From: a virus
Length of the DNA stretch: 64,000 nt
Reading direction: 5' to 3' (one strand)
Virus record (IMG/VR): IMGVR_UViG_3300005095_000072
Coordinates: 54,426 to 118,425 of that record
How positions within the stretch are numbered: the stretch's first letter is position 1; each line of letters opens with the position of its first letter. The notes under the pieces were generated by a model that worked only from the letters and a program-made list of their open reading frames with translations, did not search any database and was not told where the DNA came from. The position numbers were made by a program, and so were the translations under genes. Of the stretch, positions 28,598-49,698 are shown piece by piece.

Positions 28598-30478
28598 ATG
28601 GTAAAAATTGGTAACAGTTTAACAGAGTCAGAACAAATAAAATTAAAAGCAAGAGCATCTGCAGGGGATGTTAAATCTATTAATGTCTTAAAGATAAACT
28701 CTGCAAAAAGAAATTTATCTACTACAAGTTCATTAAGCTTTGGTAGTGGAAATTTAACTTCATTAAGACAGGCTGTTGATAAAATGAGTTTAGAGGATAA
28801 TTATATTTATATAAGAGCTGAGTTATTAATGGAGTTAGTTATTTCAGGTGGGCTAACTATCTCAAGATTAACTTTAGAACAAAAGATTATTATATTTGCT
28901 TGGCTGTATAAGTATGATAAAAAGATAGGTAGAATCATAGATATATTTGTTAATTTACCTTTAAGCACTTTGAGATTACAAAAACCAACTCAAACTAAAA
29001 ATGATATACTTCAAGATTATGTGTATGCTTATTTTGAAAGATTTTGGAATAAAGTATCTTTTAAGAAAAAACTAAAAAAAGTATTTTTATACACTAAGTT
29101 ATTTGGGGTGGGGGCTTTACTGTTAAGCGATGATTATAATGAAAAGTCAGATACAGTTATAGACTTTACTAATTTAAAAACTCTTATTCAAGATGAGATA
29201 ACAGAAGAAGAATGGGAAGAGATAGACAAGATAACAAAGGAATATAATAACAACCCTGATAAAGTTTCATTAGAAGATAAAAATAAAGTTATATCTAAAC
29301 TTGTTAGAGGTGTTAATAATCAATATAAAGGGGTGGAGTTCGCTAAAGTTGTAAATCCTTTTGAAGTTATTAAAAGAAAATCAAATAAAGATATTGATTA
29401 TCATATATACAATATAAGTGAAGATACTCATATTAAAAAGTTCTTAGAAAGTGAGATGGGGGTTAAACTTAAAAGAAACCCTGATGATATAGTAAATATG
29501 TTAAAAAAGATAAACTATTCTGAAAGTTATATAAAATTATTTCTTAATAGCAATGGTATGGATGGAGTACAAGTTGATTCTAACCCTTATTATTCTTCTT
29601 GTTATATAGTATCTATGGAAGAAGAAGGACTATCTAACTTGGATAATTCTAACTTTAATAGAGTATTACAAAGTGCTATTGATTTAAAGATGGTTAGAGA
29701 TAGAGAAAGAATGAAATCAAATGAAGCTTATAAAGTTATAAGGCTTGTTACTATCCCTGAGGGAGAACTCACACCTGACCAAGTAGCTGAGTTTGAAGCT
29801 AAAGTATTAGACGCCGCTGAATCACCTGAAGGTAGTGTTATTACAACTAACTATAATGTTAATTGGCAAGAGTTTCGTTTGGATGCTAGAGAACAGATAG
29901 ATTTACAAGGAGTAGAACTTAAAGCAGAACAAGATATAAATTCAACTTTTGGTATAGCAGATGTACTCGTTGGAGGAGAAGATAGTTATGCTAATTCTTT
30001 TATGAAAACTGAAATGATGGTAAATGAGTTCAATGCTAGTAGAATGGAACTAAAAGAATTTGTAGAAGAGAAGATATTTAAACCTATAGCTATTAAGGCA
30101 GGATTTGTTGTTAAAGATGAATGGGGAGAACCTAAACCTGTTTATCCTAGCTTGAAGTTCGACAGAATATCTATTGCCAGAGGTTCAGAAGATTTTGCAC
30201 TATTACAAGAACTAGCTAGTGCAGGTAAGTTGCCTTGGGAGACAATTATAAATGCTCTCAATTTTGATTATGAGGAAGTACAAACTAAGTTGAGAAATGA
30301 AAAAATGAGTATTTTAAATGATAACATAGGTGCTGTAATAGATAACTCTGCTGGAGGTTTAGCTGAACAATTATCTTCTAACCCTGAGTTTTTAGAGAAG
30401 ATAGCAGATATATTACAGTTAAAGATAGATATAAATAAAGAACCAAACACAGATGAAGAATCACAGGGAGATGAATAA
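28598..30478 (+). CDS. portal protein
   Basis: Follows terL; 626 aa; IGRIIDIFVNLPLS, GGEDSYA, IFKPIA pattern. Confidence 0.8.
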   Translation: MVKIGNSLTESEQIKLKARASAGDVKSINVLKINSAKRNLSTTSSLSFGSGNLTSLRQAVDKMSLEDNYIYIRAELLMELVISGGLTISRLTLEQKIIIFAWLYKYDKKIGRIIDIFVNLPLSTLRLQKPTQTKNDILQDYVYAYFERFWNKVSFKKKLKKVFLYTKLFGVGALLLSDDYNEKSDTVIDFTNLKTLIQDEITEEEWEEIDKITKEYNNNPDKVSLEDKNKVISKLVRGVNNQYKGVEFAKVVNPFEVIKRKSNKDIDYHIYNISEDTHIKKFLESEMGVKLKRNPDDIVNMLKKINYSESYIKLFLNSNGMDGVQVDSNPYYSSCYIVSMEEEGLSNLDNSNFNRVLQSAIDLKMVRDRERMKSNEAYKVIRLVTIPEGELTPDQVAEFEAKVLDAAESPEGSVITTNYNVNWQEFRLDAREQIDLQGVELKAEQDINSTFGIADVLVGGEDSYANSFMKTEMMVNEFNASRMELKEFVEEKIFKPIAIKAGFVVKDEWGEPKPVYPSLKFDRISIARGSEDFALLQELASAGKLPWETIINALNFDYEEVQTKLRNEKMSILNDNIGAVIDNSAGGLAEQLSSNPEFLEKIADILQLKIDINKEPNTDEESQGDE

Positions 30479-31749
30479 TGGTAAAAGTTAAAAGAAGATT
30501 AAAAAGATTTAATACAAGTGCTTTAGATAAAATCATAGATTTACATGAAAAAACAGCAAGAGAGATATTTGATATACCTAATCTTAAGAAAATATCTAAA
30601 GGTGGCTCAGATAGACAAGTCTTTGATTTGGGTGGAAATAAAGTCTTAAAGGTAGCTAAGACGGCAAGAGGTTTAGCTCAAAATGAAGCTGAGTGGGATT
30701 TTAATTTAGCAGGAGGTATTTTACCACAGGTATTCTATAAAGGAAAGAACTTCTTAATAGTGGAGAAAGTTTATTTTGATAAGAAAAGACCTTTAATAAA
30801 TGCTCTCTGTAAATATTTGAAAAACCAAGATACATATACTCCAAGTGCTTATGAAAGAAAATATAATATGGATAGAGCTTTAGAAAATGCAGAAGAACAA
30901 TTTAAAATACCTTATTTAACTAATTTAAGAGATTATGATTATCTTATCGGAGATTTAACAGCACCTAGAAATTGGGGAGTTACAGGTAGAGGAAGAGTTG
31001 TACTTGCTGATGGAGGAACTGTTAGTTCTGATAGTATAATGAGTCCTCCTCAATGGGTTAAAGGAGAGTGGGAGGAAGTTAAACAAAAGAATAGAGAACT
31101 AAAAAAGTTATACGGAGATACAGATAAAATTATAGCTAGTAGTTTAGTAACTAAAGCAAAGATTGAAAAAGAGTTCCTAGAGAAGAACAAAGATTTACCT
31201 GAAACTGTTGTATATCAAACCCCACCTATAAAAGGTGGAAAGAAATTTCTATCTGTTATAAGAAGAGGGGATAAACCTAGTAATTATTACTATTATTCTC
31301 AAAGAGTAGGAAAAGATAGCATAAGATTTTTGTTATATGATGCAAATAAAAAAGATAAACCTTTTGGAGTTTTAGAACAGTTTGAAGCTAGTCAAAACAG
31401 AACTACAGTTGGAGCTTTTAGTGGCTCAATGGATAAACCTAATTTAACTCCAAAAGAGATATGTAGAGAAGAAGTCAATGAAGAGAGTGAATACACTGTA
31501 ACAAAAGCTGAGATGAACGATAGGATATTTCATCTTAAAAATATGAGAGTAGGGAGTCAAACAAATGAAGTAGCATATCTTTATATTGTAAATGTTACAG
31601 GCTTAAAAACAACTCCTAAAAAACCTGAGAATGAGTGGGAGGAGAACACAGATACTCACTGGCTATCTTTAGAAGAGATAAAAGATTATTGTAATTGGGA
31701 AGCTTTTATTATAGCAGACAGAGCTAAAGCAATATTTAAGGAATTATAA
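30478..31749 (+). CDS. protein-kinase-like domain fused to NUDIX hydrolase
   Basis: GGSDRQVF, VLKVAK, QNEAE, GDLTAPRNWG, VLADGG; then NUDIX-like box GSMDKPNLTPKEICREEVNEESEY. Confidence 0.75.
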   Translation: MVKVKRRLKRFNTSALDKIIDLHEKTAREIFDIPNLKKISKGGSDRQVFDLGGNKVLKVAKTARGLAQNEAEWDFNLAGGILPQVFYKGKNFLIVEKVYFDKKRPLINALCKYLKNQDTYTPSAYERKYNMDRALENAEEQFKIPYLTNLRDYDYLIGDLTAPRNWGVTGRGRVVLADGGTVSSDSIMSPPQWVKGEWEEVKQKNRELKKLYGDTDKIIASSLVTKAKIEKEFLEKNKDLPETVVYQTPPIKGGKKFLSVIRRGDKPSNYYYYSQRVGKDSIRFLLYDANKKDKPFGVLEQFEASQNRTTVGAFSGSMDKPNLTPKEICREEVNEESEYTVTKAEMNDRIFHLKNMRVGSQTNEVAYLYIVNVTGLKTTPKKPENEWEENTDTHWLSLEEIKDYCNWEAFIIADRAKAIFKEL

Positions 31750-31752
31750 AAA

Positions 31753-32139
31753 ATGAAGATTATAGCTTTTGAGATTAAAACATCAACTTTAGAAAAAATG
31801 TTAAAAAAGTATCTTAAAAGCATTTTTGAGAAAGATATTGAATATAAGATAAGTATCTATAAAGATGAAAAAACTAAAGAACCTTATATCTATATAAATG
31901 AAATTTATGTTTATCCTGATAAAAGAGGTCAAGGTTTAGGAACTAGATTCCTCAAAGAGGTTATTAAGTTCGCAGATATTCATAAGTTAAATATAGCTTT
32001 GTTATCAACTTTAATAAACAATAAAAAACAGAATAGCTTTTATTATAGACAAGGTTTTGTTAGATTAAAATGTAAAAATTGTAAATACAATATGAGAAGA
32101 TATTATAAAAGGAAGAACAATGAAGATAATAGCATATAA
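31753..32139 (+). CDS. GNAT acetyltransferase with MKIIA N-terminus
   Basis: IYVYPDKRGQGLGT (acetyl-CoA motif A), FYYRQGF. Confidence 0.85.
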   Translation: MKIIAFEIKTSTLEKMLKKYLKSIFEKDIEYKISIYKDEKTKEPYIYINEIYVYPDKRGQGLGTRFLKEVIKFADIHKLNIALLSTLINNKKQNSFYYRQGFVRLKCKNCKYNMRRYYKRKNNEDNSI

Positions 32140-33553
32140 CAGTAATCCCAAGAACTTTAGAAGATACCATCAAAGTAAAGGACTGTTTAATAAAAGGTCT
32201 ATGAGAATAGCTAAGAGAAATCAAAAGACACATAAAAAATCAGCTTTAAAAAGATTTTGTGGAGATAAAATAGACACTAATTGTATTACTAGAGCTTTGA
32301 GAAGTAATAAAAAAGAACTTAGAAAGTCTGCTAATTTTGCCTTAACTTTAAAAAAGATAGCTAGTCGTAGAAAGGGTATAAGAAATAAATTTGATATAGC
32401 AACTAGAAAGAAAAACGATGCTATTTATAATAGAAAACATAAAACTGAACTACAAAAGGTTAATAGAGCTAGATTACAAAGTAAAGCTAGTTCAAAGATA
32501 AACTTCGATAAGATACAAAATTACTTCACAAATGATATTTTAGAAACAGTAGCACCTAAAGAAAACAATTCTAACCTTTGGTTAGGTGGAAGTTTTATAG
32601 GAAGACCTTTAGAGTATTTACCTTATGTTTATAGAGGTATTTCAAATGAAGAGTGGAACAATATTCAAAAGAAAAAATATATCAAAAGTGATGGAAGATT
32701 AAATTTATCAAATGAAAAAGGACTGACTGTTTATAGTATCAATCCCAACACTGCTTTAAATTATGCTAATGATTTTATTCCTGATAGTAAAAAAGAGTTG
32801 AAACCTACAAAAGATAAGCCTAATTACATAGTTCAAGTAGATATTAGAGATATAAAAGATAAATTTTTTATAGATAAAGCTGATGGTTATGTTAAGACTA
32901 AAAGTAAAGTACCTATAAAATATATAACTAGAGTGTGGGAGGTATATCCTAATAACAAAACTAAGTTAATTTTCAAAAGAAGCAATTTAGACGAAACTTT
33001 TAACTCTAAGGCTAGTAACAAAACTATTGTTTATCATGGAAGTAATGCTAATATATCTAAGCTAGAACCTAAATATATGATGTTAGACCATGCAAACTCA
33101 CAAGAGGGTGTAGGTATTTATTTTACAACTGAAATATCAACTGCTAAAAGATATGGTAAAAACATTTACACAACAGAAGTAGAACATACAAATTTTATAT
33201 CTTCAAGAACTAAAGTATCTGCTTTAGGTAAGCAAAAAGTAATTAAATTGTTAAAAGAGTTAGGAAAGTTAGACCGTGAGAGTGCTTTTTATCTTGTGAC
33301 TGATTATGGTGTTTATATTACTGAACCTGAAGAGTATGAAGATTATATGATGGAAGATGTTTATAACAGTATGAGAACAGAGCAAATAAGAAATTTTCAA
33401 ATAGAACTATCTGAGAGATTTAGTGTAGTAGATTTTGTTAATGTATGGAATAAAGTATTGCCTAAAGTTCATGGAACTTATATTTTACAAAAAGGTAACG
33501 AGATTTGGTATTCCATTATAAACACAAAATACAAAATTAAAAGAGTTAATTAA
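32120..33553 (+). CDS. multidomain protein: basic N-region plus two ADP-ribosyltransferase-like domains
   Basis: VYRGIS...TVYS...ALNYA and VYHGS...GVGIYFTT...AKRYG. Confidence 0.65.
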   Translation: MKIIAYNSNPKNFRRYHQSKGLFNKRSMRIAKRNQKTHKKSALKRFCGDKIDTNCITRALRSNKKELRKSANFALTLKKIASRRKGIRNKFDIATRKKNDAIYNRKHKTELQKVNRARLQSKASSKINFDKIQNYFTNDILETVAPKENNSNLWLGGSFIGRPLEYLPYVYRGISNEEWNNIQKKKYIKSDGRLNLSNEKGLTVYSINPNTALNYANDFIPDSKKELKPTKDKPNYIVQVDIRDIKDKFFIDKADGYVKTKSKVPIKYITRVWEVYPNNKTKLIFKRSNLDETFNSKASNKTIVYHGSNANISKLEPKYMMLDHANSQEGVGIYFTTEISTAKRYGKNIYTTEVEHTNFISSRTKVSALGKQKVIKLLKELGKLDRESAFYLVTDYGVYITEPEEYEDYMMEDVYNSMRTEQIRNFQIELSERFSVVDFVNVWNKVLPKVHGTYILQKGNEIWYSIINTKYKIKRVN

Positions 33554-33554
33554 T

Positions 33555-34184
33555 ATGTTTGATTTAGAGAAAGCAGTAGAAGATTTTAAAACAAAAGGTG
33601 CAAAGTATTTTATTAGTACTTATGAGAAAGATTTTGAGAGATTGTTAAATCAAGCTCCTAAAGGAAAGCTAAGAAGCTATTTAAAGTCTAATTTTGGAGT
33701 ATATGCTCTTTCAAAGCTTAGGAATATATTATCATTAAATAAAAAAGATTTTCTTTATAATCCTATTTTTAGGCTTGTATTAGATGAATTTTATTTGCTT
33801 GATAAATATAGTCAAAAAGATTTAGATAAAGAGAAGATTATTTTAGATAGAACTCTTTCTAAATATCTTACAGATATGGGATACACTTATTCTATGGAAA
33901 TATTGAATGGTGATAAAGTTCTTAATATAAACTCAATATATGTAGATAAAGATAAAAGAGGTCAAGGTATAGGAACTAAATTTTTAGAAGATTTGATTAG
34001 ATTTGCAGATAAATATAATTATATTTTAACATTAACACCTAGTTCAGATTTTGGAAGTGATGTTAATAAACTTAAAAAATTTTATTTTAAATTTAAGTTT
34101 CAATCAAATAAAGGTAGTAAAGCAATAAATCAATTAAGAAACTCTATGTTTAGACTACCTAAGAATTATAAAAAGGATAGATAA
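33555..34184 (+). CDS. GNAT acetyltransferase
   Basis: IYVDKDKRGQGIGT, LTPS..FG...LKKFYFKFKF. Confidence 0.85.
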   Translation: MFDLEKAVEDFKTKGAKYFISTYEKDFERLLNQAPKGKLRSYLKSNFGVYALSKLRNILSLNKKDFLYNPIFRLVLDEFYLLDKYSQKDLDKEKIILDRTLSKYLTDMGYTYSMEILNGDKVLNINSIYVDKDKRGQGIGTKFLEDLIRFADKYNYILTLTPSSDFGSDVNKLKKFYFKFKFQSNKGSKAINQLRNSMFRLPKNYKKDR

Positions 34185-34579
34185 TGAGAATAATATCAAT
34201 GGATGTTAAAGCAGATTATAGTAAGATGACACCTAACAACACTAAAATAGTTATACCTTATATAAAAGTTAAATTGATTAAAAATTCAAAAGATAAAAAA
34301 GACTTTGAAACTTTTTTAAAATACTTTATAGATAAAGGTTATTATATAGTTATAAACAACGGTAGCTATGAAATTTCTCAAAAAGAACTTAGAGATTTAA
34401 AAATAAAACCTAGTTTATTAAAGAAGATACACACTTATGACTCTCCTAAATATAATCCTTATGTAGTGAGAGATTACAGTTCTTTTCCTGTCGAAGATTG
34501 GTTACAGCAAATAAAAGCCTTTGAATACATTAATAATGAAACAGATGAAGGAACTGGATTTTATGGTGATTGGAGCTAA
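34184..34579 (+). CDS. hypothetical protein with MRIIS N-terminus
   Basis: Coupled ORF; tag-like N-terminus. Confidence 0.65.
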   Translation: MRIISMDVKADYSKMTPNNTKIVIPYIKVKLIKNSKDKKDFETFLKYFIDKGYYIVINNGSYEISQKELRDLKIKPSLLKKIHTYDSPKYNPYVVRDYSSFPVEDWLQQIKAFEYINNETDEGTGFYGDWS

Positions 34580-34583
34580 AAGT

Positions 34584-34961
34584 ATGAAAATTATAGCATT
34601 AACTAAAGGGCAAACAGAAGATAAAGGAACTATTGCTATTGATTTTGATGGAGTTATTCATAAGTATTCTAAAGGTTATGCTGATGGTAGTATTTATGAC
34701 GAGCCTATGACAGGTGCAGAAGAAGCAATGATAGAACTTCTTGATAAAGGTCATAAAATATTTATATTTACTGCTAGAAAAGATAAGAAAGCGATTAAAC
34801 AATGGTTAAAAGATAACTTTAATGATAAGAGATTACATAATTTGCTTATAACAAATGAGAAACTACCTGCACAAGTTTATATTGATGATAGAGGGTATAG
34901 GTTTAAAGGTTGGGGTGGTGCTATGAACTTCATAGAAAAATTGGACGAGGAAATAATATGA
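34584..34961 (+). CDS. HAD-superfamily phosphatase with MKIIA N-terminus
   Basis: IAIDFDGVI, FTAR, KLPA..YIDDRG; start reassigned to ATG 34584 after GGAG. Confidence 0.85.
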   Translation: MKIIALTKGQTEDKGTIAIDFDGVIHKYSKGYADGSIYDEPMTGAEEAMIELLDKGHKIFIFTARKDKKAIKQWLKDNFNDKRLHNLLITNEKLPAQVYIDDRGYRFKGWGGAMNFIEKLDEEII

Positions 34962-36076
34962 AAGAAAATAAAATCATCAGTTTAGATAAAATACCTAATA
35001 AGGTAAATCCCCCTAATCCTATGAGAAGAGGTGTTAAAAGAACTGCAAGAAACTATTTCAAACAACCTCATATTCCAAAGAAAATGCTAAATCCTAATGC
35101 TGAAAATCTTAGTATTACTTCTGATAGTATAGAAGATGAAGCAAACACTAATAGGAACTTAGAGGGAGAAGAGATAATAAATCATTTTGATAAAGTAAAG
35201 TGCGACAATTATTCTTGTTATATTGAAAATGATAACTATTTTATATATCCTAGAACAGGTATAAAAGTGGATTTAGATGATACTGTAGAGTTGGCTTTTA
35301 ATTCTAATGATTGGATATTCACTCAAATAACAGGGTTAGCTAGTGTAAATATATTTGATAATTATAAGATAACTCCTGCAACTACAAAATTTGTCAATAA
35401 TAACGGTAATGCTTTTAGTGATAGAATATTAAAAAAATATTATAAAACTTTTATAGGAGCACATAATTTTAGAAATCATAAACAAGTTATTGATGAGTCT
35501 TATGGTATTATCTTAGATGCAGTATTAAGAGAAATACCTGTAAATAATGAAGAGTCTGTCTATTATGTAGATTTACTTATTGCTACAAATAAAGTTAGAC
35601 ACCCTGAATGGACTCAAAAGATAGAAAATAAAATTGTTAGATTTGGTAGTATGGGAGCTGAGTCATCTTCTTTTAAATGCACTTACTGTGGTAATATTCC
35701 AACTTCTTATGATGAGTTCTGCGACCATTTTAAGTTATATAAAGGTAAATATTATATAGACCCTGCTAGTGGTAAAAAGTTAAGGATAGCTCATCTTGTA
35801 GAAGACTATAAAAACAAAGAAGGTAAAGGATATGTAGAATTTGTAGAGTATTCCTTTTTGGATATACCCCCTGCTTTTGAGGGAGCTTCAATGGCTCATG
35901 TTATTAAAGTACCTCAAAATACAAATGTTAAGTTTAGTATTCCCAGACAGTTATTAACTAAATCTGCTTTTAATGTCTGGAAAGAATTTTATAAAATAAA
36001 TGATAATGGTAATAATGTAGGTTATGATGAACTTACAGAGAAACTACCTGCAATATCTGAGTTTAAAGGAGACTAG
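34958..36076 (+). CDS. prohead (maturation) protease with zinc finger
   Basis: FIGAHNFRNH, GIILDA, SMG, CTYCG...CDH, FVEYSFL..PAF; located between portal and scaffold; start ATG 34958. Confidence 0.7.
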   Translation: MKENKIISLDKIPNKVNPPNPMRRGVKRTARNYFKQPHIPKKMLNPNAENLSITSDSIEDEANTNRNLEGEEIINHFDKVKCDNYSCYIENDNYFIYPRTGIKVDLDDTVELAFNSNDWIFTQITGLASVNIFDNYKITPATTKFVNNNGNAFSDRILKKYYKTFIGAHNFRNHKQVIDESYGIILDAVLREIPVNNEESVYYVDLLIATNKVRHPEWTQKIENKIVRFGSMGAESSSFKCTYCGNIPTSYDEFCDHFKLYKGKYYIDPASGKKLRIAHLVEDYKNKEGKGYVEFVEYSFLDIPPAFEGASMAHVIKVPQNTNVKFSIPRQLLTKSAFNVWKEFYKINDNGNNVGYDELTEKLPAISEFKGD

Positions 36077-36163: not shown

Positions 36164-36899
36164 ATGGGTAAAGTAAAAGCTACAGATGATTTAAAAATAT
36201 TAGAAAATCTTAAAAAAGGTATATACACTGAAGAGTATGTACAAAAATTAAAATTAAAAGATACATTTAGTTTTAAAATAAAAGCTTATTATATTCATAA
36301 AGATAGATATAACTTTGAGGAAAGTAATTATATTTCAAAAGAGAGTAAGGTTAAAGTATTTTGTAATAAGTGTAAAGAATATTTTAATGTAAGAGTAGAC
36401 ACTGTAATAAGAACTAACTCTAAAGGAGGGTGTCCTAATAGATGTTGGAGAGAACCTTTTAGAGGTTATTCTATAGGTAATTTACACCAAAAAGAAAAAA
36501 CTTTAAAAGAATTTAAAGAGTATGTTAAGATTTCAGGGTTAGATAAATTTTTTAAATATGATTTTTCAAGTTATAAAAGTGCAAATGAAGGTATTGTAAC
36601 TACCTGTCTATTACATAATGAAACTTTTAAAAAACCTTTACATAAGTTACGAAAAGGGGTGGAGTTTAGGCAATGTTTATAAGAAAAATGGATTTAAAGA
36701 ACATCATAAAACTCCTCCTAATTATTTTTATATAAAAGGGCAAGATAAATACAATAAAAAAAATTTTACAAAAAGTAAAATATCAAAAAGATATAATATA
36801 CCTATTAATGAGATAAAATCTGAAAAAGCTGTAATGTATGAATTAGGTTATAAAAGGGTATATGATAGTGGATTAACTTGTTATATGAAAGTAAATTAA
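36164..36899 (+). pseudogene. internally deleted/frameshifted Hef-type homing endonuclease
   Basis: N-terminal Cys repeats (36164-36682) and, in another frame, GNVYKKNGF...PNYFY...VYDSG matching the C-terminus of 40669-42246; nuclease core absent. Confidence 0.7.
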
Positions 36900-36912: not shown

Positions 36913-37674
36913 ATGAGTAATAACACACTAGATAAAATAAAAATTTATAATATTTCTAGTAATGAACAAAAATACCCTGAGATAGGCGATTGGCATAGTA
37001 TTAATACATCTGCATTGTTTGGCTACAATGAGATGAAAGAGCTTTATTTTAAAGATAAAGTTACTTATGAAAAGAAGTATAGGAAAAAAGGAAAGTTCAT
37101 AGGGTTAGGGCTGAATTATGGAGGAACTTGGAAAGTAGTTCAAGATAATACAGGTTTCTCTGAAAGTAAATCTATAAAGTTATTTGCTAATTATTTTAAA
37201 AATCTGAAAGTGTTTAAGAAGTACTTAGATAAAATAGTTGCAAAGGCAATGAAAGTTAAGTATGTAGAAACTTTTTTAGGAAGACGGTTATTTTTACCTC
37301 AGTTAGATAGTGATGAATGGTGGATAAGAAACAAAGGAAAGAATAAGATATACAACTCCCCTATTCAAGCTATGGGGGCTGAGATGGTTAAGCTGATAAC
37401 TTTAAAAGTGGGAGAGTACTTAGAAAGATATGATATTTATTCTTGGCAATTCAATAATATTACTAAAAGCTATCATAAAAGAATTGTAGGTATCAATTAT
37501 ATTTATTATAAAAAGCATAAGAAAGAAATTGAAAAAAGATTTAATGATGCACCTGATGGGCATACAAAAGTCTTAGTAATAGGAAAAGATAAAGAAGTTA
37601 AGTTCGAGTATCAAAGGAACTTAAAAATATCTATGAAAGATATACGAGATTTTAAAATGTTTATAATATGGTAA
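36913..37674 (+). CDS. polA: family A DNA polymerase fragment (fingers/motif B)
   Basis: GDWH, RKKGKFIGLGLNYGG, YVETFLGRRL, NSPIQAMGAEMVK. Confidence 0.88.
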   Translation: MSNNTLDKIKIYNISSNEQKYPEIGDWHSINTSALFGYNEMKELYFKDKVTYEKKYRKKGKFIGLGLNYGGTWKVVQDNTGFSESKSIKLFANYFKNLKVFKKYLDKIVAKAMKVKYVETFLGRRLFLPQLDSDEWWIRNKGKNKIYNSPIQAMGAEMVKLITLKVGEYLERYDIYSWQFNNITKSYHKRIVGINYIYYKKHKKEIEKRFNDAPDGHTKVLVIGKDKEVKFEYQRNLKISMKDIRDFKMFIIW

Positions 37675-38291: not shown

Positions 38292-39176
38292 ATGGATAGA
38301 GAGAAAGAGATACTATCTGTTGTGTCTGCACAATCAAGAGCTATGGACACTATAGCTTCAAGATTAGTAGCAGGTGAATACACAGATGAGGACATTCAAA
38401 GCAAGTTAGAGTCTGTTGCAAGAGTTCTTGAAACAACTGCAAGTGCACAAGATTACCTATATAGTCAAATACAAGATGCAAGTTCGTTTAGTGTTATGGC
38501 AAATGATGAGTTCGACTCAGTATTGAGTAAAGTTCTAGCAACTCAAGCTCAAGCAGAACTACTAACACAAGCATTAGAGGGAGAGCTTGTTACTATTGCA
38601 GGTGATGAAGAGAGCGACGAAGATGAACTTGATGCAGAAGCTTGTGGAGTACAAGATGATGAGATATTAGAAGCTAAGTCTTTTGATATGTATGCAGGTG
38701 ATGAAGAAGGAAATGACGAGCCTAGTGATGAGGACGATGATGTTCTTGAAACTGATGCAGTAGCAGTAAGGCATAATCCAGAGACTGGAGATATAGAGGC
38801 TTATAGTGCTAAACCTAGTAAGCCTAAAATGATGTATATTAAAAAACAAAATGCAACTCCTCTAAGAAAACCTGCAGGTAGATTAAAAGTTAAACCTACA
38901 TCAAGAGGTAAAAAACCTTTCGGAAAACCAACTGCAAGTGCAGAGGAGCTTATGGCACAAGCACAAGAGCTTATAGCAATGGCACAAGAGATAGGGCAAG
39001 GTGATAATCATGGAGAGATAAATCCTCAAGTGAAGCAAAGAGAACCTAAGTCTTTAAATAAAATGGTAAATGATAGTGCAAATGGAGTTCCTGCTGTAAA
39101 AACTGTAGCAAGTGAAACTACTATGCAATCAACTGCAAATGATAGCTCATCTATGATTAGATGGGACTTTGTGTAA
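38292..39176 (+). CDS. capsid scaffold protein
   Basis: Acidic, Ala-rich, directly upstream of decoration and capsid genes. Confidence 0.65.
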   Translation: MDREKEILSVVSAQSRAMDTIASRLVAGEYTDEDIQSKLESVARVLETTASAQDYLYSQIQDASSFSVMANDEFDSVLSKVLATQAQAELLTQALEGELVTIAGDEESDEDELDAEACGVQDDEILEAKSFDMYAGDEEGNDEPSDEDDDVLETDAVAVRHNPETGDIEAYSAKPSKPKMMYIKKQNATPLRKPAGRLKVKPTSRGKKPFGKPTASAEELMAQAQELIAMAQEIGQGDNHGEINPQVKQREPKSLNKMVNDSANGVPAVKTVASETTMQSTANDSSSMIRWDFV

Positions 39177-39654: not shown

Positions 39655-40578
39655 ATGGAAAGATTTATCCCAACAAGTGTAGCTCAATCAACTAGCTCAC
39701 TACAAGATATAACAACTAGAAACGAGCTGACTGCAAAGCTTATGGTAACTGCCGCAGGTAGAGAAGAATTGGCTGTGTCAATGGTAGAACCTCTAAGAGA
39801 GATGAGAGACTATCGTGCAGTAGGTAGAAGAGCATTTAGAGTATATCCTCTAGGACAAGGTGCTATTCCTGAGTTTCCTAAAGATGTAGATGTACCTGCT
39901 TATGTAATAGGTGAAGAAGGTGATGAAGTTCAAGCTAAAATAAAAGGAAAGAAAGTACTTGTACCTCTTTTCAAAATAACTTCAAACCCTATGATACCTA
40001 TAACTGAAATCAAACAAGCAAGATTTGACTTAAATGATAGAGTTAGAGAGAAAGTTAAATCAGAGATTGTTAAAGTAGAGGATGGTAAAATCTTTGAGCT
40101 TATGAAGATAGTAGCAGAGAGAAGCACAGATATAAATGCACTAACAACTGTAAATGAGTCAGAGCTAACAGTTAAGCACTTTAGCGAAGCACAAGCAGAG
40201 ATAGAGAAGTGGGGAGAGCTTGATGCAGTAAATATCTTCATGAACCCTTATTGGAAACAAACTCTAAGAGAGATGAACAATGTTCAAACAGGGTACTATG
40301 TAGATTTTGAAACAGCAAGAGAGCTTATAACAGCAGGTTATGTTGCAAGAATCAATGGAACTCAAATTCATACTTCAAGTATGGTACCGAAAGATATGAT
40401 ATTCATAACAGCTGACCCTGAGTTCTTAGGAAGACTGGTTATTTCATTCGATTTAACAGTCATCGAATCAGAAGATGCAAAGGCTCTCGAAGTCGGGTAT
40501 AGTATCTTTGAAGAGATAGGTATCTTGATACACAACCCTAAAGCACTTAGTGCAATCAAAATCAATCTAGGACAGTAG
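39655..40578 (+). CDS. major capsid protein (HK97 fold)
   Basis: LAVSMVEPLR..RDY..VGRR, VPLFKI.SNP, EDG..F, GYSIFEEIGILIHNP; start ATG 39655 after AAGGAG. Confidence 0.85.
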   Translation: MERFIPTSVAQSTSSLQDITTRNELTAKLMVTAAGREELAVSMVEPLREMRDYRAVGRRAFRVYPLGQGAIPEFPKDVDVPAYVIGEEGDEVQAKIKGKKVLVPLFKITSNPMIPITEIKQARFDLNDRVREKVKSEIVKVEDGKIFELMKIVAERSTDINALTTVNESELTVKHFSEAQAEIEKWGELDAVNIFMNPYWKQTLREMNNVQTGYYVDFETARELITAGYVARINGTQIHTSSMVPKDMIFITADPEFLGRLVISFDLTVIESEDAKALEVGYSIFEEIGILIHNPKALSAIKINLGQ

Positions 40579-40668: not shown

Positions 40669-42246
40669 ATGGGTAAAGATAAAATTAGAATAAGAACAGC
40701 TCAAGGTGTATTTTACATAGAACCTACTAATCATAAATTTTCTTACAATACAAAGCAATACCTTGAAAAGCTTTTCTATAGGTATCCTGATAAATTTAAA
40801 CCTAGACAATTTAGAAAATTTGCTTGGTTTAGTGCAAAGACTTTAACTAAAGTATATTGTTATGGCTGTAAAAAATATATAGAGCAAACTCCTGAAAGAT
40901 TACTAGGAGGTAAATTTTGTAAAGTATGTGCAGGTAATGTACAATACACAGATAAACAATTTAAAGAAAAACTAAAAGAAATTTATAAAGATAAACCTCA
41001 TCTTGATTTTTCACAAGGGATTTACACTAAAGCAAGAGAGCCTTATAAGATGGTTTGTAAGTATCATGGAGAGTATATTGTAAAATATGCATCTACTTTG
41101 TTAAAAGGGTATAATTGTTATAAATGCACTAGAAAATCAACTGCTGAAAATATGAATAAAGTAATGAAAGAAAAGTTTAAAAATGGTTATAAACCTGATA
41201 GAATTAAGATGAGGAAAACTTCATTTAAAGATAGATTAGATAAAGAGTTCGAGTTCGTAGAACCTATTGAAGTTGTAGACCAATATTATGCTACAGATAG
41301 AGTAGAGATACGACATAAGAAATGTGGCTCTATCAGAACTGTAAATCTTGATAATTGTTCTAGGTTAAAATGCTTTAAGTGTCATAGGGTAGGAACTTCA
41401 AAAGGGGAGCAAGAAGTAGCAGAGTTTTTAAAACAGTATGTAGATATTGAAGAACATATTAAACCTTTTGGAGATAAAAGAGAGATAGATATTTATATAC
41501 CTAGTAAAGATTTGTTTATTGAGTTCGATGGTGTATTTTGGCATAGTGATAAGTATAAAGGAGTTAAGGCTCAACAAGAAAAAACTTTAGAGAGTTTAAA
41601 TAATGGATATGATATTATTCATATAACAGATAGTCAATGGTTAAACAATAGAAGTACTATTAAATCTATCTTGTTAAATAAGTTAGGATTAACTCCATTT
41701 AAAATAGGAGCAAGAAAATGCACTGTAAAAGAGATAGATTACAAAACTGCTAGAAATTTCGTAGATAAAAATCATTTGCAGGGTTATGCTAGAAGTTCTA
41801 TAATTTTAGGATTGTATTTTGAAGATGAACTTTTATCTGTAATGTCTTTTTCTGTATTAAAGAAAGACTATGAAGTAAATCTTAATAGATTTGTGAATAA
41901 GAACTTCACTTTAGTTCAAGGTGGGTTTAGTAAGTTGTTGAGATATTTTATAGAAAATTACAAAGACAGATATAAGGTTATAACTTCATTTGCAGATTTA
42001 CAATGGTCTAAAGGTGAAGTATATTATAAAAATGGATTTAGATATTTATACACAACTGTTCCTAGTTATAATTATTATACAAAAACTGATTTTAAGATGT
42101 ATCATAAGTCCTATTTTAGAAAAAGAAGGCTCATGAGAATATTAGGATTAAAAAGAACTAATATGACAGAGTTTCAGATGGCAGATAAGTTAGGCTTGAT
42201 TAGGTATTATGATAGCGGTAAGATGAAGTTTCAGCTTAACATATAA
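40669..42246 (+). mobile_element. free-standing Hef-type homing endonuclease
   Basis: Repeated CxxC modules, SKGEQEV, EIDIYIP...IEFDGVFWH nuclease, ARKC..., GGFSKLL, FADLQWS.G..Y, DSG. Confidence 0.8.
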
Positions 42247-42329: not shown

Positions 42330-42866
42330 ATGAAAGTCATAGCAAATATAACAATGAATGCACGAAACAATGGAGTTAAATTCCCACTTGTTAAAGGTAA
42401 AGAAGTTGAGTCAACTGTAGTGGAAGCTTTAGGGGATAAATATTTAGAGTTCCTTAAAGAGAACAAGTATGTTACTATTGTTAAGGATACAAATGAAGAT
42501 ATAGTAAATGAGGAACTAACAGATATAGATGAAGGTAATGATGATACAAAAGAACCTGAAACTAATGAAAACACAGATGAAACAACTGAAAACAATACTA
42601 ATGAAAACACAGACACAGATAACCAAGATGAAAATAATCTTATAGTTGTTGAAATAGATGGAGAAGAGTACGAGCTAACAGAAGAGGAGTATCAAGAGTA
42701 TCTAGCTTCATTAGAAGCAGAAGAGAACGAAGATACAACTGAAGTAGCAGATGAGCCTGAGATAGTGGAAGATGTTATAGAAGAACCAAAAGAAACTAAA
42801 ACAAAATCAAAAAGCACTAAAAAAACTTCTAAGAGAAGAACAAGTAAAAATACAAAAAAGCTGTAA
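42330..42866 (+). CDS. acidic low-complexity virion-associated protein (MKVIA N-terminus)
   Basis: E/D/T/N-rich middle, basic tail. Confidence 0.65.
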   Translation: MKVIANITMNARNNGVKFPLVKGKEVESTVVEALGDKYLEFLKENKYVTIVKDTNEDIVNEELTDIDEGNDDTKEPETNENTDETTENNTNENTDTDNQDENNLIVVEIDGEEYELTEEEYQEYLASLEAEENEDTTEVADEPEIVEDVIEEPKETKTKSKSTKKTSKRRTSKNTKKL

Positions 42867-42876
42867 AAGATAGATA

Positions 42877-45154: not shown

Positions 45155-45164
45155 GGAGTAGTTT

Positions 45165-47726
45165 ATGGGTAGTGCAAAAGTAACGATAAGACAGCAAGAT
45201 AGAACATTAACTATTCCTAGTCTATCATCTGTTTATGGTGGTATAGCTATTAGAGCTAATAAAGGTAAAATAGGAGAACCTTTCCTTGTAACAGGTGAAG
45301 ATGAACTGATAGATAATTTTGGTGAGCCTTTGTTGGCTTCAACTGGGTATTACTCTGCTATGACTTATCTTGGTGAGTCAAATAAGTTGTGGGTAGTGAG
45401 AGCCGCACACGAAGATGTTAAGTATTCTGTGGCTTTAGTTAGAAGTAAAGTAAGCAATATTCCAACAGACCCTATCATAGATGGGTATATCCCTGACCCT
45501 ATTGTTAAACCTTTAGATGGTGGAATGACACAAGAAGAGTTAGATAGTTATATCTTCCCACTGTACAGCACAGATAGAATATATGAGTTAGCAGAAAATA
45601 CAATCTTTGCAAATGCAGATGATACAACTAAAGTTAGATTAAATAACCTTGATGGTCTTAAAGTTGGTGATAAGCTAGTATTTAACACAGGAGATATAAA
45701 TTCTCTTAATAATGATAATATAGCTTATGGTATAGTTGATTTATATACTCAAGATTTAACTTATGATAAAATAACAGTAGATACAGCTATAAGTGGGGGT
45801 GAAGGTGTTGAGGTATTTAAAGATGATGGAGAGGGGAACCTAACAGCTTATCCAAACCATCCTAAAGTAGTTAGAGATTTTACTAGTTCTAAAGAGATTT
45901 TAGTAGATAATGCAGACTATATAGCAAATGGAGATTTAATCTCTATAGGTGGAGCAACTGCTACTTTCGAAAGCAAAGAAGTATATCAAGAAGTAGGTAG
46001 CTTTGTAGAGCTTGACAATAAAGTTACTTTAACAAAAGACTATAAGGTATATAAAATCTTACAAGATAAAATGGAAGACAGAGATGCTTTCTTGGTTGCT
46101 AGTGCAAATCAAGGTAAATGGGGTAATAAAATCTCTATAGGTATAGCACCTGCAAAAGATGATATAGAACTAGGAGCTTTCTTAGTCTTAGTTTATTATG
46201 ATGGGGTACAGGTTGAAACTTGGAAAGTATCAAGAAAACAAGTTATCAATGGTAATGGAGACCAGTTATATTTAGAAGATGTTATCAATGGTAAATCTAA
46301 ATACATCTTAGTTAAAAACAATGTAGCAGATGTTAGCTATATTGATGGAGAACCTGAGTTACCTTTATTTACTAATTATAGTTTATGGTTACAAAATCCA
46401 ACTGATTTATTCCAAAAACAAAGTATAACTTTAGAAGAGAACTTACTTCAAGGTCATACAGAGGTTAAGTTAAATTCAGTTGCAGGTTTAGCTGTAGGGA
46501 ATAGAATCAAGTTCGAGATAGACATCAATGATAAACTATCTTCTGAGTATAAAATCTTGTCTATAGATAGTAATAACAACACTATTATCTTAGATAGACC
46601 TATAGTTGAGGTAGAGATAAACAAAGAGATTATAGATGAAAATGGAAGTACTTATACTGCAAGTCTATATAAATTTGATGATACTGTAACAGATTTAGCA
46701 AATGGTATCAAAAATGGAGTGCAGTATTATCCATTAACTAAACTAGATAAAGTTTATTATAACTATCCTATGGGTGTTAGCTTTAGTATAAGTGGCATTG
46801 ATGGTAAACTTGTTGATGCAGGTGCAAACCTTATGAAAGGTGGGGATGACGGAAGTCCTGTTACTGTTTCTGATATGGTAAATGCTATTAAACTGTTATC
46901 CAATAGAGAAGAAACTCCTGTAACATTGTTACTTGATGGAGGATACACTGTTCCTGCTTATGCACAAGCTCTTTATGAAGTGGCTAAAAATCACGATTTA
47001 ACTCATGTGTATTTATCTTCTGATATAAATGCTGAGTTAAGTGCTAACTATAAAAATGAGATAGTTGATTATAAAGCAAGTCTTAACTTAAACACTGAAA
47101 AAGCAAGTGTATTTACAGGTTGGTTAAAAGTTTTAGATGAATATAATCAAAAAGAACTTTATATTGCACCAGACGGTTTCGCCGCCGCTTCACAAGTATT
47201 TACAACAGATAACTATGCTATGTGGTATCCAGCCGCAGGTTGGAAACGAGGTAAAATCGTTGCTCTTGATATAACTAGAAAATTCTCTGAGGGAGATAGA
47301 GACTGGTTTGTAGATAATAGAATAAACCCTATTAGATATAAAAAAGGTTCAGGCTTAGTTATATGGGGTAATGAAACTCTTATCAGTAACCCATCTCCAT
47401 TACAACTTAGAAGTGTAGCTATGCTGTTAATCTATATCAAATATGGATTATATGAAGCACTTGAAAATGTAGAGTTCGACTTAAATGATGAAACAACTTG
47501 GAGCTTAGTTGAAGGCTCTATAGATGGCTTTATGAGAGATGATGTACAAGCTAAAAGAGGTGTTTATAGTTATAGAGTAGCTGTTAAAGATGTTATAACT
47601 GATACAGATATAGCAAATAGAAGGATGCCTGTATTCTTAGGTATTCAACCAACTATGGATATAAAAGAGATACCTGTTACCCTTGCTATATATAACAAGG
47701 GACAAAAAATAGAAGTAAGTGTGTAA
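45165..47726 (+). CDS. contractile tail sheath protein
   Basis: LIDNFGEP, LWVVRA, GKWGNKI, WYPAAGWKRG, INPI, IWGNETL, FDLND..TW. Confidence 0.93.
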   Translation: MGSAKVTIRQQDRTLTIPSLSSVYGGIAIRANKGKIGEPFLVTGEDELIDNFGEPLLASTGYYSAMTYLGESNKLWVVRAAHEDVKYSVALVRSKVSNIPTDPIIDGYIPDPIVKPLDGGMTQEELDSYIFPLYSTDRIYELAENTIFANADDTTKVRLNNLDGLKVGDKLVFNTGDINSLNNDNIAYGIVDLYTQDLTYDKITVDTAISGGEGVEVFKDDGEGNLTAYPNHPKVVRDFTSSKEILVDNADYIANGDLISIGGATATFESKEVYQEVGSFVELDNKVTLTKDYKVYKILQDKMEDRDAFLVASANQGKWGNKISIGIAPAKDDIELGAFLVLVYYDGVQVETWKVSRKQVINGNGDQLYLEDVINGKSKYILVKNNVADVSYIDGEPELPLFTNYSLWLQNPTDLFQKQSITLEENLLQGHTEVKLNSVAGLAVGNRIKFEIDINDKLSSEYKILSIDSNNNTIILDRPIVEVEINKEIIDENGSTYTASLYKFDDTVTDLANGIKNGVQYYPLTKLDKVYYNYPMGVSFSISGIDGKLVDAGANLMKGGDDGSPVTVSDMVNAIKLLSNREETPVTLLLDGGYTVPAYAQALYEVAKNHDLTHVYLSSDINAELSANYKNEIVDYKASLNLNTEKASVFTGWLKVLDEYNQKELYIAPDGFAAASQVFTTDNYAMWYPAAGWKRGKIVALDITRKFSEGDRDWFVDNRINPIRYKKGSGLVIWGNETLISNPSPLQLRSVAMLLIYIKYGLYEALENVEFDLNDETTWSLVEGSIDGFMRDDVQAKRGVYSYRVAVKDVITDTDIANRRMPVFLGIQPTMDIKEIPVTLAIYNKGQKIEVSV

Positions 47727-47736
47727 GGAGAACGGT

Positions 47737-48279
47737 ATGCAAATAGGTATAAATAAAAGAAAAGCATTGTTAGGCGAAGCTCAATCACTCTTACATTGGG
47801 ATGTCGAGATCGTTAATCCTCCAAAGGCAATAGGAGCACCTCCAAAAGGTTTTCCTATTAGGATAACAACTTCTGATATGCCGATAGAACAAGAAGAGTA
47901 TCAAGATGTAGAGCTTGGAGGTCATTCTTGGACTGGCTCAGTTAAAGTGATAAAAGCAGGAGAAATTAACTTCGAGCTATTTGAAGGAACTGACCAAGTA
48001 GTAAAAGACTATTTCTTGAAATTGCTAAATGCTAAATGGTCAGGAGATGGAAAAGAGACTTATGGTATTCAGCACACTATGGCTGATTTAAAATGTGATG
48101 TTAAAATTACATTGAGAGGACCTGATGATAAACCTACAAGAACTTATCTTTTAATAGGAACACTAATAAGGAGAACAAGTGTAGGTAGCTTAGGTCAAAC
48201 AGCAGAGTTGCAAAGAATAGGTGGTGCTATGAAGTATGATGACTTCCACGAAGGCACTGGAGGAAATGTAGTTTATTAA
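47737..48279 (+). CDS. tail tube protein
   Basis: Directly after sheath, ~180 aa; start ATG 47737 after AAGGAG. Confidence 0.8.
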   Translation: MQIGINKRKALLGEAQSLLHWDVEIVNPPKAIGAPPKGFPIRITTSDMPIEQEEYQDVELGGHSWTGSVKVIKAGEINFELFEGTDQVVKDYFLKLLNAKWSGDGKETYGIQHTMADLKCDVKITLRGPDDKPTRTYLLIGTLIRRTSVGSLGQTAELQRIGGAMKYDDFHEGTGGNVVY

Positions 48280-48292
48280 GCTACTAAAGAAA

Positions 48293-48317
48293 AGTTAAGA
48301 GGAAAAACCTCTTAACT
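48293..48317. terminator. hairpin after tail tube gene
   Basis: AGTTAAGAGG-AAAAA-CCTCTTAACT perfect 10-bp stem. Confidence 0.55.
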
Positions 48318-48340
48318 AATATTATAAGGAGAAAAGAACA

Positions 48341-48868
48341 ATGAAGATAATTGCAGGACTAAAAAATTTAGATGGGGTAAGTGGATATACTGTAGTTATA
48401 ACTTTATATTCAGAAACAGAACCTATAAAAGGTGTGATAAATAAAAAAGCAGTAGAAAAACTTTATCAAAAAATAGATATTATTTTAAAAGATAAAATGT
48501 TTAAAGGCATGAAAGTTGGTCGTATTCCTAAACCAAAAGAAAGTAATGGCGAAATAAGGCAAGGTATTATTGTAATAAATATTAAAGGAGTGGGTTCTAG
48601 TGTAGATTTACAGAAAAAAAGTGAAGAATTTATAAATAAACTAAAAACTATTTTAGGGGTGAAATCTCAAAAAGGATACAATAATAGTTTAACTGCTATA
48701 TCTATACATATAAGAAGTTTATATTCAGGATTTGAAAAAAGAGCAGACAAACTTTTTGATAAAAAACCGACAGGATTATATAAGGCAGAAGCTTTTGCAG
48801 GATATATAAAATCTTCTAAGGCTATTATTTTAGATAAAAAGAAGTTTGAAAATATGCTAATAGGTTAA
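48341..48868 (+). CDS. hypothetical protein with MKIIAG N-terminus
   Basis: Inserted in tail operon; tag motif. Confidence 0.65.
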   Translation: MKIIAGLKNLDGVSGYTVVITLYSETEPIKGVINKKAVEKLYQKIDIILKDKMFKGMKVGRIPKPKESNGEIRQGIIVINIKGVGSSVDLQKKSEEFINKLKTILGVKSQKGYNNSLTAISIHIRSLYSGFEKRADKLFDKKPTGLYKAEAFAGYIKSSKAIILDKKKFENMLIG

Positions 48869-48881
48869 AAGGAACTAAAAG

Positions 48882-49412
48882 ATGAAGATAGGTTTAAATC
48901 AATTAAAAAAAATAGGAGAAATTGGAAATAACTCAAATTGGTTAGTCAGATTTAGTAAACCATCTTCATCTTCTGTTTCTGTGTCAAATACTTTAAATGC
49001 TATTGATAATAAATGGTTTCCTGCTATGAGTGTAGATTATAACCAACTTTCTGTTACAAAGGTTGATGTAACAATAGGACCTGATTTAGTTATTCCTATA
49101 CCTGTAAAAGCTGAGAAAGCTAGTAAGGTATCTATAGGGTTTTATGATAAAGATTTAAAAACTTTAAGATTAGCTTTAATCTCTTGGGTAGAAAATAACA
49201 CTAAATTGTATAATAAGCATCTTGCACCAGATATATCTAAATTGAAAAGTATTGCTTTACAGTTAGATATTATTCACACAACTAAGCAAAAACAAGAGGT
49301 GTATAAAGATTCTTATTATGTAATATTAGATGAAGATATATCTTTTCATGGAGATTATCAATTTTTACTAGACACTAATACAGTAAGTTTTATGATTGTA
49401 GGGTATAATTAA
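48882..49412 (+). CDS. tail tube-like baseplate protein
   Basis: N-terminus MKIGLNQLK resembles tube MQIGINKRK; similar size. Confidence 0.55.
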   Translation: MKIGLNQLKKIGEIGNNSNWLVRFSKPSSSSVSVSNTLNAIDNKWFPAMSVDYNQLSVTKVDVTIGPDLVIPIPVKAEKASKVSIGFYDKDLKTLRLALISWVENNTKLYNKHLAPDISKLKSIALQLDIIHTTKQKQEVYKDSYYVILDEDISFHGDYQFLLDTNTVSFMIVGYN

Positions 49413-49437
49413 AAATAAAAAACAAAAAGGAAGAACA

Positions 49438-49698
49438 ATGAAAATAATTGCAGGGTTACAAAGTAAAGCAAATATTGCAGTTTATACTGTATTTTTTAAA
49501 AACAATGAAGATATGAATAAAGCTTTAAAATTAAATGATAAACTAAAAATAGTTCCTGATAGTGAAATTGAAAATATAGAAAAAGAGTCAAACGATAGAT
49601 TAGCACATTTTGATTTTTCTTCTAAATATGCATCTCAGTTTGATATAGAGATAGCAAAGAAGTTAAAATTAAAAGTGGGTTATGCTCTATCAAAATAA
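49438..49698 (+). CDS. small protein with MKIIAGLQSKA N-terminus
   Basis: Inserted in tail operon; tag motif. Confidence 0.65.
   Translation: MKIIAGLQSKANIAVYTVFFKNNEDMNKALKLNDKLKIVPDSEIENIEKESNDRLAHFDFSSKYASQFDIEIAKKLKLKVGYALSK

Follow-up and report, generated by a model that had tools for sequence, protein, structure and literature searches.

Why should apparently unrelated proteins of one phage begin with the same few residues? The question is raised by a 64,000-nucleotide stretch of viral DNA (the window), the right-hand 64 kb of the 118,425-bp virus record IMGVR_UViG_3300005095_000072 (G000), in which a series of genes starts with MKIIA or a close variant. An earlier note, made from the letters alone, had listed eight such starts and read the peptide as a short tag that loads enzymes into the phage head, in analogy to the capsid-targeting sequence (CTS) of phage T4. 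All eight starts, including the protease start MKENKIIS at 34958, are present at the coordinates given in Table 1.

The shared start peptide was confirmed to be real and well above chance. As for its role, comparison with related phages makes it probable (roughly 0.65) that M-[K/R]-I-I-A is a modular N-terminal address peptide, by which proteins would be incorporated into the prohead, transported in the capsid and brought into the host with the DNA.

A shared start peptide in G000

The G000 sequence has 28% G+C and carries almost all of its genes on the plus strand; a 91-bp terminal repeat suggests a circularly closed assembly. Genes were called with a caller of our own, which scores the ribosome-binding site and the length of the open reading frame (ORF). 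The exact peptide MKIIA opened 7 of the 152 plus-strand genes, with 0.05 expected from position-specific residue frequencies, and the degenerate pattern M[KR][IV]I[AS] opened 10 of them (0.03-0.14 expected). No other five-residue start was seen more than twice. Additionally, KIIA occurred inside a protein only once in the 36,842 residues of the proteome, and all 10 words of the form ATG-[KR][IV]I[AS], in any plus-strand frame, coincided with called gene starts.

Chance or composition could be suspected behind such a pattern, as MKI starts might simply be common at this G+C content. Lysine is the commonest second residue (20%), isoleucine is common at positions 3 and 4, and MK opens 57 of 262 control genes, called with the same caller in 21 unrelated AT-rich metagenome loci (<36% G+C). 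The earlier note had itself regarded the commonness of MKI starts as a threat to its reading. However, only 3 of the control genes start with MKI and none of the 262 starts with the tag, the excess in G000 is as large as given above, and in relatives 7 of 7 and 6 of 6 genes of one cluster are tagged (see below). At the scale tested, the chance explanation is refuted.

BLAST revealed no paralogy among the tagged proteins of G000, save that the tagged GNAT protein at 31753 resembles an untagged GNAT-like protein at 33555. A secretion or lipoprotein signal peptide was rejected on inspection: the starts lack a hydrophobic core of about 10-20 residues, and polar or charged residues appear within 6-10 positions of the start.

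Seven genes (30478-36076) follow the portal gene, the last being the prohead protease (34958). Four of these seven are tagged versus 6 of 145 genes elsewhere (Fisher p 3e-4), and no gene at window positions 1-25 kb starts with the tag, just as the earlier note had remarked. Comparison lends strong support to the idea of a short N-terminal tag for loading enzymes into the head, similar in role to the T4 CTS, but the accompanying statement that all tagged genes lie in structural operons proved untrue genome-wide: three more lie outside the window (Table 1), one of them, at genome position 19600, amid replication genes.

The small genes that follow the endolysin gene (genome 8633-10914) start, in order, with MKIVYY, MKIIAG, an untagged sequence, MKIISL, another untagged sequence and MLKIIS. 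At the syntenic positions of the relative G003 we found MKIIAG and MFKISA, and the tagged proteins are not alignable. In general, the small MKIIAG proteins of G000 and G003 show no detectable homology, although one pair is at syntenic positions.

The tag in relatives and as a separable module

A search with the capsid protein led to two IMG/VR relatives with 84% capsid identity, and the protease alignment led to 39 loci. In G001, a 55.8-kb fragment, all 7 genes from the portal stop codon through the protease are tagged and none of the 51 other plus-strand genes is (Fisher p 3e-9). Their starts follow the pattern M[R/N]I[I/V]A (MRIIAL, MRIIAK, MRIVAS, MRIIAS, MRIIAM, MRIIAL, MNIIAN), and the cluster also includes an HExxH protein. 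In G003 (109.8 kb, 166 plus-strand genes) the cluster is tagged throughout (6 of 6: MRIIAE, MRIIAS, MKIIAM, MRIIAN, MKIIAI, MSIIAF) versus 2 of 160 genes elsewhere, both MKIIAG (Fisher p 1e-9).

More distant genomes carry peptides of another sequence. G010, with 42% capsid and 38% protease identity, has a code of the MKIF[AV] type: MKIF opens 7 and MFIF 3 of its 126 genes. Three of these ten genes, with an MKVL gene among them, stand directly after the protease, and five others together with an MKVF gene form a second cluster, which contains an ADP-ribosyltransferase (ART). The 224-kb genome G004 (protease 37-38%, capsid 38% identical) bears the tag MI.[KR][YF]S.L on 19 ORFs (18 with ATG, 1 with GTG), written with 2-5 codons per position. 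Eleven consecutive tagged ORFs lie upstream of the protease with one untagged gene in between, 2 lie within 0.7 kb past the portal, and the remaining 6 form three small groups. Among the 19 proteins, 3 match ART-PolyVal and 1 is SprT-like above Pfam cut-offs, 1 matches NUDIX below the cut-off, and 14 have no family above it; BLAST linked five pairs, three of them over much of their length.

Inspected by eye, 38 protease loci showed common tags only in L012 and L014 and none in the other 36. A protease-only search of viral contigs gave no close relatives, and a metagenome scan with the protease alignment gave no relatives. Scanning metagenomes with the Nudix-like alignment yielded 27 loci, and the 24 examined, mostly of other context, held no new tagged head cluster.

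In GC-rich relatives with the same protease family (L017, L044, L029, L030 and L042), genes for giant proteins of 1,200-1,750 residues, not many small tagged genes, immediately precede the protease gene. A possible motif, [KR][KR]-hydrophobic-Ala, is frequent near the N-termini of these proteins, in genomes where R and A are very common.

Several protein families show the tag together with and apart from the folds behind it. The Nudix-like domain, about 190 residues long, makes up a separate 217-residue protein in G003 and the front half of a protein in G001. It comes directly behind MRIIA in these two and directly behind MISRYSKL in the G004 orthologue (33-36% identical to the clade copies). 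All seven database matches to the Nudix-like query (its own record plus six, at 63-67% identity) start with M[RK]IIA. The ART domain lies directly behind the tag in G001, G003 and G010; in the window it belongs to a tagged fusion and begins there at residue 298. Residues 1-118 of that fusion (32120), tag included, match a separate tagged protein of 131 residues in G003 (BLAST).

The HAD-like phosphatase carries the tag as an addition. Among the best 120 database homologues, the DxD strand starts at residues 6-12, with neither tag nor linker, in 83; M[KR]IIA followed by a linker of about 13 residues is found only in the 4 clade members and is absent from the other 116. The G003 protein has a 14-residue insertion between tag and domain, and its tag is still terminal. 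In an AF2 model of the window protein (mean pLDDT 85), residues 1-3 and 5-8 have a pLDDT below 50, and no secondary structure is predicted before residue 16.

The tag was also found as a fossil inside proteins. In the protein of 423 residues encoded at 30478, the sole internal KIIA of G000 lines up with the tags that open the stand-alone Nudix-like orthologues, and database homologues with an added second module have NKVIAKYE, NRIIAKYE or SIIAS at the join. As far as these alignments go, the tag is a module separable from the folds behind it.

To compare peptide and nucleic acid, we pooled 17 portal-to-protease cluster genes of G000, G001 and G003. Position 2 is mostly Arg (10) or Lys (5), with one Asn and one Ser. 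Ile occupies position 3 in 17/17 (ATA 9, ATT 7, ATC 1) and position 4 in 16/17, and Ala occupies position 5 in 16/17 (GCA 10, GCT 5, GCC 1); positions 6-10 vary freely, with no preference. The four codon strings that had been quoted for the tag proved exact. Because the codons differ synonymously, the peptide is the conserved entity; judged from these genes, selection acts on it and not on the RNA.

This bears on the possibility of a translation-level element, that is, an mRNA motif or early-codon ramp for initiation or coupling, or the operator of a translational regulator. Many tagged genes abut or overlap an upstream stop codon, four G000 genes have GGAAGAACA in common before the ATG, and the Ala codon is GCA in 10 of 16 tags compared with about 0.33-0.40 genome-wide; A-rich early codons of the AAA-ATT type are linked to high expression. 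However, synonymous sites vary while residues do not, K and R interchange, and each position of the eight-residue G004 motif is written with several codons. The tag also survives as a peptide within fusion proteins, the most abundant products (capsid protein, scaffold and sheath) lack it, and apart from those four G000 genes the upstream regions of tagged genes are unrelated. We therefore regard such an element as highly improbable.

Four MKIIA genes share an identical ribosome-site spacer, (G)GAAGAACA, abutting the ATG (genome 8935, window 32114, 48335 and 49432). The word AGAACAATG occurs six times in G000, always at a gene start, and four of these starts belong to MKIIA genes. The common spacer may have been left by recombination at the tag, through which gene cassettes were exchanged.

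Proposed capsid loading and its alternatives

If the tag is an address peptide, it would bring each protein into the assembling prohead, and the marked proteins would travel in the capsid and enter the host along with the DNA. The marked set would consist mostly of small host-modifying enzymes (GNAT, ADP-ribosyltransferase, Nudix-like, HAD phosphatase and HExxH proteins) and, in relatives, would also include the protease. A prohead component would read the tag; candidates are the portal, the putative scaffold (38292) and the capsid protein with its inner surface. The G001 and G003 proteases may be loaded by the tag as well, and in the window orthologue about 104 residues predicted to be disordered could act as a tether. 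The small, fast-evolving MKIIAG proteins would be counterparts of the T4 internal proteins. We infer both encapsidation by the tag and its reading by a prohead component. Loading is supported by the portal-to-protease placement, the swap of one tag for another between lineages, the addition to the HAD fold, the fossil tags and the CTS-like leaders on ART homologues described next.

A full-library search with the G001 ART protein returned 131 representatives, in 81 of which the first ART strand (hydrophobic, aromatic, His, Gly) lies within 45 residues of the Met start. Of these 81, 27 fit a regular expression that we wrote for T4-CTS-like leaders (such as MKFKEFFLES and MKTFEQFINEA), 33 were classed as other, many of them CTS-like by eye, and 21 had no extension. 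The leader stands just ahead of the first ART strand, the same position as the tag. In T4-like phages, this cargo family therefore has a capsid address of a type that has been validated, and in the window's lineage a different short peptide stands at the same place. Cultured phages searched with the same ART protein gave no match.

Around such ART genes we studied 28 IMG/VR loci, and in 14 of them two or more genes matched in at least 5 of the first 8 residues; the common peptide was a CTS-like leader in at least 9 of the 14. A Peptidase_S77 (gp21) protease was found in 3 of 5 such records, the three most complete (G005-G007), and the record of locus L109, a 31% fragment, gave no match. In the clade itself, Peptidase_S77 (PF03420) matched none of the four genomes G000, G001, G003 and G004 at E up to 1. 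Shared CTS-like leaders of this kind suggest that, for many T4-like phages, a list of injected proteins could be drawn up from the leaders alone.

In L109 (4025-16083), twelve neighbouring genes start with MR[AY].EL[YF]E. Other loci, among L097, L099, L100, L103 and L121, have MKTFREWLRE three times, MKI[RK][DE]LFE four times and M[RK]I[RK]QI.EA three times.

The T4 CTS is the 10-residue peptide MKTYQEFIAE; it undergoes a single cleavage, and fusion to it suffices for the packaging of any protein (PMC8442874). The internal proteins IPI-III have only the CTS in common (PMC3012670), and it guides them into the core of the prohead (PMC3012670, PMC8442874). G000 likewise has a short N-terminal peptide as the sole thing common to diverse proteins of one phage. 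The tag differs in being five residues long (M[KR]IIA), with positions 6-10 variable, and in not belonging to the MKTYQEFIAE class. The cleavage motif of the T4 prohead protease is hydrophobic-x-Glu, whereas the tag is not ended by such a site. The capsid lineage is another one, the protease cannot be recognised as a gp21, the genes for the cargo form a cluster from portal to protease, and the cargo consists mostly of enzymes, unlike the small, basic internal proteins of T4.

Polyvalent proteins (Iyer et al. 2017) offer a second comparison; such domains were predicted to be packaged and injected (PMC5512222). The domains appear to overlap in ART-PolyVal, SprT-type and other metallopeptidases, NUDIX and GNAT (PMC5512222), although in the window GNAT is above and ART-PolyVal below its Pfam cut-off. 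The genes also adjoin portal or head genes: in G000, G001 and G003 the tagged cluster runs from portal to protease, in G010 it follows the protease, and in G004 tagged genes adjoin both. However, polyvalent proteins as described there unite 2 to 15 domains in a single giant chain, in which a MuF or portal domain is often the presumed anchor (PMC5512222), while here there is mostly one module per gene with its own tag, and only 30478 and 32120 are two-module fusions. The term "N-terminal peptide" gave 0 hits in a term search of PMC5512222.

The principle is familiar from other shells too. The tag shares a format with encapsulins. There, short terminal peptides on unrelated enzymes direct loading into an HK97-fold shell. 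Those peptides are mostly C-terminal and have a known binding site on the shell, in contrast to the DNA-filled virion considered here, with its candidate receptors only. Terminal segments reportedly suffice for entry into proheads in the case of the targeting tail of the HK97 prohead protease and of the Dar proteins of phage P1; these segments are longer and specific to one protein, whereas here one peptide is found on many. We found no description of a tag of the M[KR]IIA or MIKKYSxL type in the open-access literature. Judged by these comparisons, the type of system is already known, and what is new is the sequence class of the tag and the phage lineage that bears it.

A number of observations weigh against capsid loading. 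Two cluster genes of the window (30478 and 33555) are untagged, its protease has only MKENKIIS, and the G004 protease has no tag. Some tagged genes lie where cargo would not be expected beforehand: two in the tail module (48341, 49438), two next to lysis genes (8941, 9746) and one amid replication genes (19600). Five residues are very short for a specific binding epitope. No consistent cleavage motif was found after the tag: the candidates are family-specific Glu-containing linkers (GQ-x-E-DKG in HAD, LPE in Nudix-like proteins), and in the ART proteins Glu is absent from the stretch that joins tag and fold. The tag of the 128-residue GNAT may at the same time form the first strand of that protein's fold. 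We found no cultured member of the clade, and the cultured phages G and Tunturi_5, which are among the top matches to capsid or protease, show no common N-termini near their head genes. A complex prediction of the capsid protein, candidate scaffold and HAD cargo scored 0.00 in a run without controls and weighs neither way.

The tag might instead confer a common fate other than encapsidation, such as co-assembly of enzymes, localisation in the cell, or recognition by a protease, either that of the prohead or one of the host, as a signal for timing or degradation. The data show a modular N-terminal peptide and not the destination of the proteins, and some tagged genes lie outside head modules; the GNAT enzymes of the cluster could, speculatively, act on N-termini. 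Prohead proteases work within proheads, and in G001 and G003 the protease itself is tagged. As the tight association with portal and protease in four lineages and the CTS-like leaders on ART homologues also fit capsid loading better, we consider another common fate unlikely.

Another possibility is that the proteins are indeed cargo and the tag acts at exit, as a leader that engages the portal or tail channel for ejection with the N-terminus first. What is conserved is the extreme N-terminal position and not the distance to the fold, and the segment bearing the tag is predicted to be unstructured, both of which would suit such a leader. However, we know of no sequence-specific ejection signal in tailed phages, although no search was aimed at one. 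The tagged protease of G001 and G003 functions inside the prohead. Moreover, the known precedent, the T4 CTS, acts at loading (PMC8442874, PMC3012670). An action at exit is thus decidedly unlikely.

If the tag is a loading signal, the injected proteins of uncultured phages would be predictable from sequence alone, and it is among injected proteins that anti-defence and host-takeover functions would first be looked for. The MKIIAG proteins, small and unannotated, would then be equivalent to the T4 internal proteins. Leader-based capsid targeting would be recurrent, with lineage-specific codes, and not a peculiarity of T4; fossil tags at junctions would show how polyvalent virion proteins form and split. 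Enzymes could also be packed into phage capsids with a minimal tag, only 5-8 residues long.

A wider picture is tentative, and we would sooner bet against it than on it. A broad group of uncultured phages, defined by this protease and capsid lineage, may use very short, fast-evolving zip codes (M[KR]IIA, MKIF[AV], MI[KR]KYSxL) that define the whole injected set and are read by a prohead component as encapsulin shells read their peptides. In that case the sequence would directly reveal which proteins are injected, as many as 19 in a 224-kb phage, and fusion of tagged modules would give rise to giant polyvalent proteins. No portable capsid-loading signal smaller than the five-residue tag would then be known.

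Genes of the window and minor observations

Table 1. Features of the head and tail modules and all tagged genes of G000 (positions in the window unless marked as genome positions)
Feature	Position	Strand	Match or context
Tagged gene, MKIIAG	genome 8941		just downstream of tail-fibre and endolysin genes
Tagged gene, MKIISL	genome 9746		just downstream of tail-fibre and endolysin genes
Tagged gene, MKIIAM	genome 19600		amid helicase (replication) genes
Large terminase	26721		
Portal gene	28598..30478	+	phrog_16240, E 6.8e-11; tagged cluster starts at its stop codon
423-residue fusion, untagged (MVKVKRRL)	30478..31749	+	residues 227-419 Nudix-like module
Internal fossil tag KIIA, residues 217-220 of the 423-residue protein	31126..31137	+	fusion junction
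GNAT acetyltransferase, 128 residues, MKIIAF	31753..32139	+	Pfam Acetyltransf_7
477-residue fusion, MKIIAY	32120..33553	+	residues 298-476 ART domain
GNAT-like, 209 residues, untagged (MFDLEK)	33555..34184	+	Acetyltransf_7, 29.2 vs 27
131-residue protein, MRIISM	34184..34579	+	start only
HAD-like phosphatase, 125 residues, MKIIAL, linker of ~13 residues, DxD strand	34584..34961	+	
Prohead maturation protease, MKENKIIS (displaced tag)	34958..36076	+	phrog_18299, E 6.6e-16
HNH-type homing endonuclease	36164-36682		between protease and scaffold
Candidate scaffolding protein	38292..39176	+	by position only, between protease and cement/capsid genes
Cement protein	39186		
Major capsid protein	39655..40578	+	phrog_2522 major head protein, E 8.8e-44
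HNH-type homing endonuclease	40669-42246		between capsid gene and next gene
178-residue protein, MKVIAN, doubtful member	42330..42866	+	
Tail sheath	45165		followed by probable tube protein
175-residue accessory protein, MKIIAG, candidate extra cargo	48341..48868	+	tail module
86-residue accessory protein, MKIIAG	49438..49698	+	tail module; insertion relative to G001 (no gene there)
Tape-measure-position protein, 1,205 residues, phage lysozyme domain	50746-54363		PF00959, 37.5 bits

Matches to Pfam and PHROG identified the region of the tagged genes as a head module (Table 1). In the first gene of the cluster, BLAST matched the Nudix-like module to G3_102358 (55%), G1_12434 (57.5%) and G4_71345 (36%); the NUDIX Pfam match on the G004 orthologue is weak, at 17.6 versus a cut-off of 21.1 bits. 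The first 216 residues of the fusion (30478-31125) have a Gly-rich loop followed by VLKVAK, which recalls a protein-kinase-like fold, and their sole match is phrog_4301, of unknown function.

The annotation of the 128-residue protein as GNAT was borne out by Acetyltransf_7 (39.9 bits, cut-off 27), and no homologues of this protein turned up. The ART-like character claimed for 32120 is partly supported: ART-PolyVal remains below its Pfam cut-off (21.5 versus 31.2), and the identity to the ART proteins of the relatives is 42-44%. The G001 orthologue of the untagged GNAT-like protein (G1_14129, 36% by BLAST) starts with MRIIAS. The 131-residue protein at 34184 matched neither Pfam nor PHROG.

The HAD-like call agrees with phrog_1238 (E 1.8e-21), a DFDGV motif and the source names of homologues. 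The public gene call for this protein begins 7 codons upstream (34563, MVIGAKSMKIIAL) and overlaps the end of the preceding gene; we favour the start at 34584 because the orthologues start with MRIIAL and GGAG precedes it at a spacing of 8.

By alignment, the protease orthologues start with MNIIAN in G001 and MSIIAF in G003. The disordered stretch after the start of the window protease was taken from an AF2 model. A fold search with this protease ranked T4 gp21 first (E 0.058, TM 0.21/0.40), with herpesvirus proteases also at the top and none at E <= 0.001, and its profile matched no solved structure below E 0.48.

Only in part can the gene at 42330 be kept among the tagged members. Its start fits, but its positional counterparts in G001 (MKYDVL) and G002 (MIYSVL) are untagged and show no BLAST similarity to it. 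The protein at 48341 has no family match and no homologue in G001 or G003; the ESM Atlas gave a low-confidence lead, under the trusted level, to a Peptidase_M17_N-like protein (0.94, 169 features in common).

Among the head proteins, the portal is 55-56% identical to those of G001 and G003. The candidate scaffolding protein has no family match, and its gene is kept in both these relatives. The major capsid protein scores 20.8 bits with Pfam Phage_capsid, under the cut-off of 24.2. Its top matches, 34-35% identical, come from an uncultured 485-kb phage, Tunturiibacter phage Tunturi_5 and Bacillus phage G; this capsid search gave no close cultured phage, the nearest being phage G at 34%. The clade capsid protein is about 18-21 residues longer at the N-terminus (window 39655-39720) than about 30 homologues of about 37% identity, and the additional stretch may be a propeptide.

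The two HNH genes have different positions in relatives: in G001 they lie at L005 4163-5641 and 6396-8081, and in G003 before the terminase and after the protease. A 253-residue protein encoded within the head module (36913-37674) matches a DNA polymerase PHROG (phrog_17, E 1.9e-18), and this polymerase-like gene is kept within the head modules of G001, G003 and G010.

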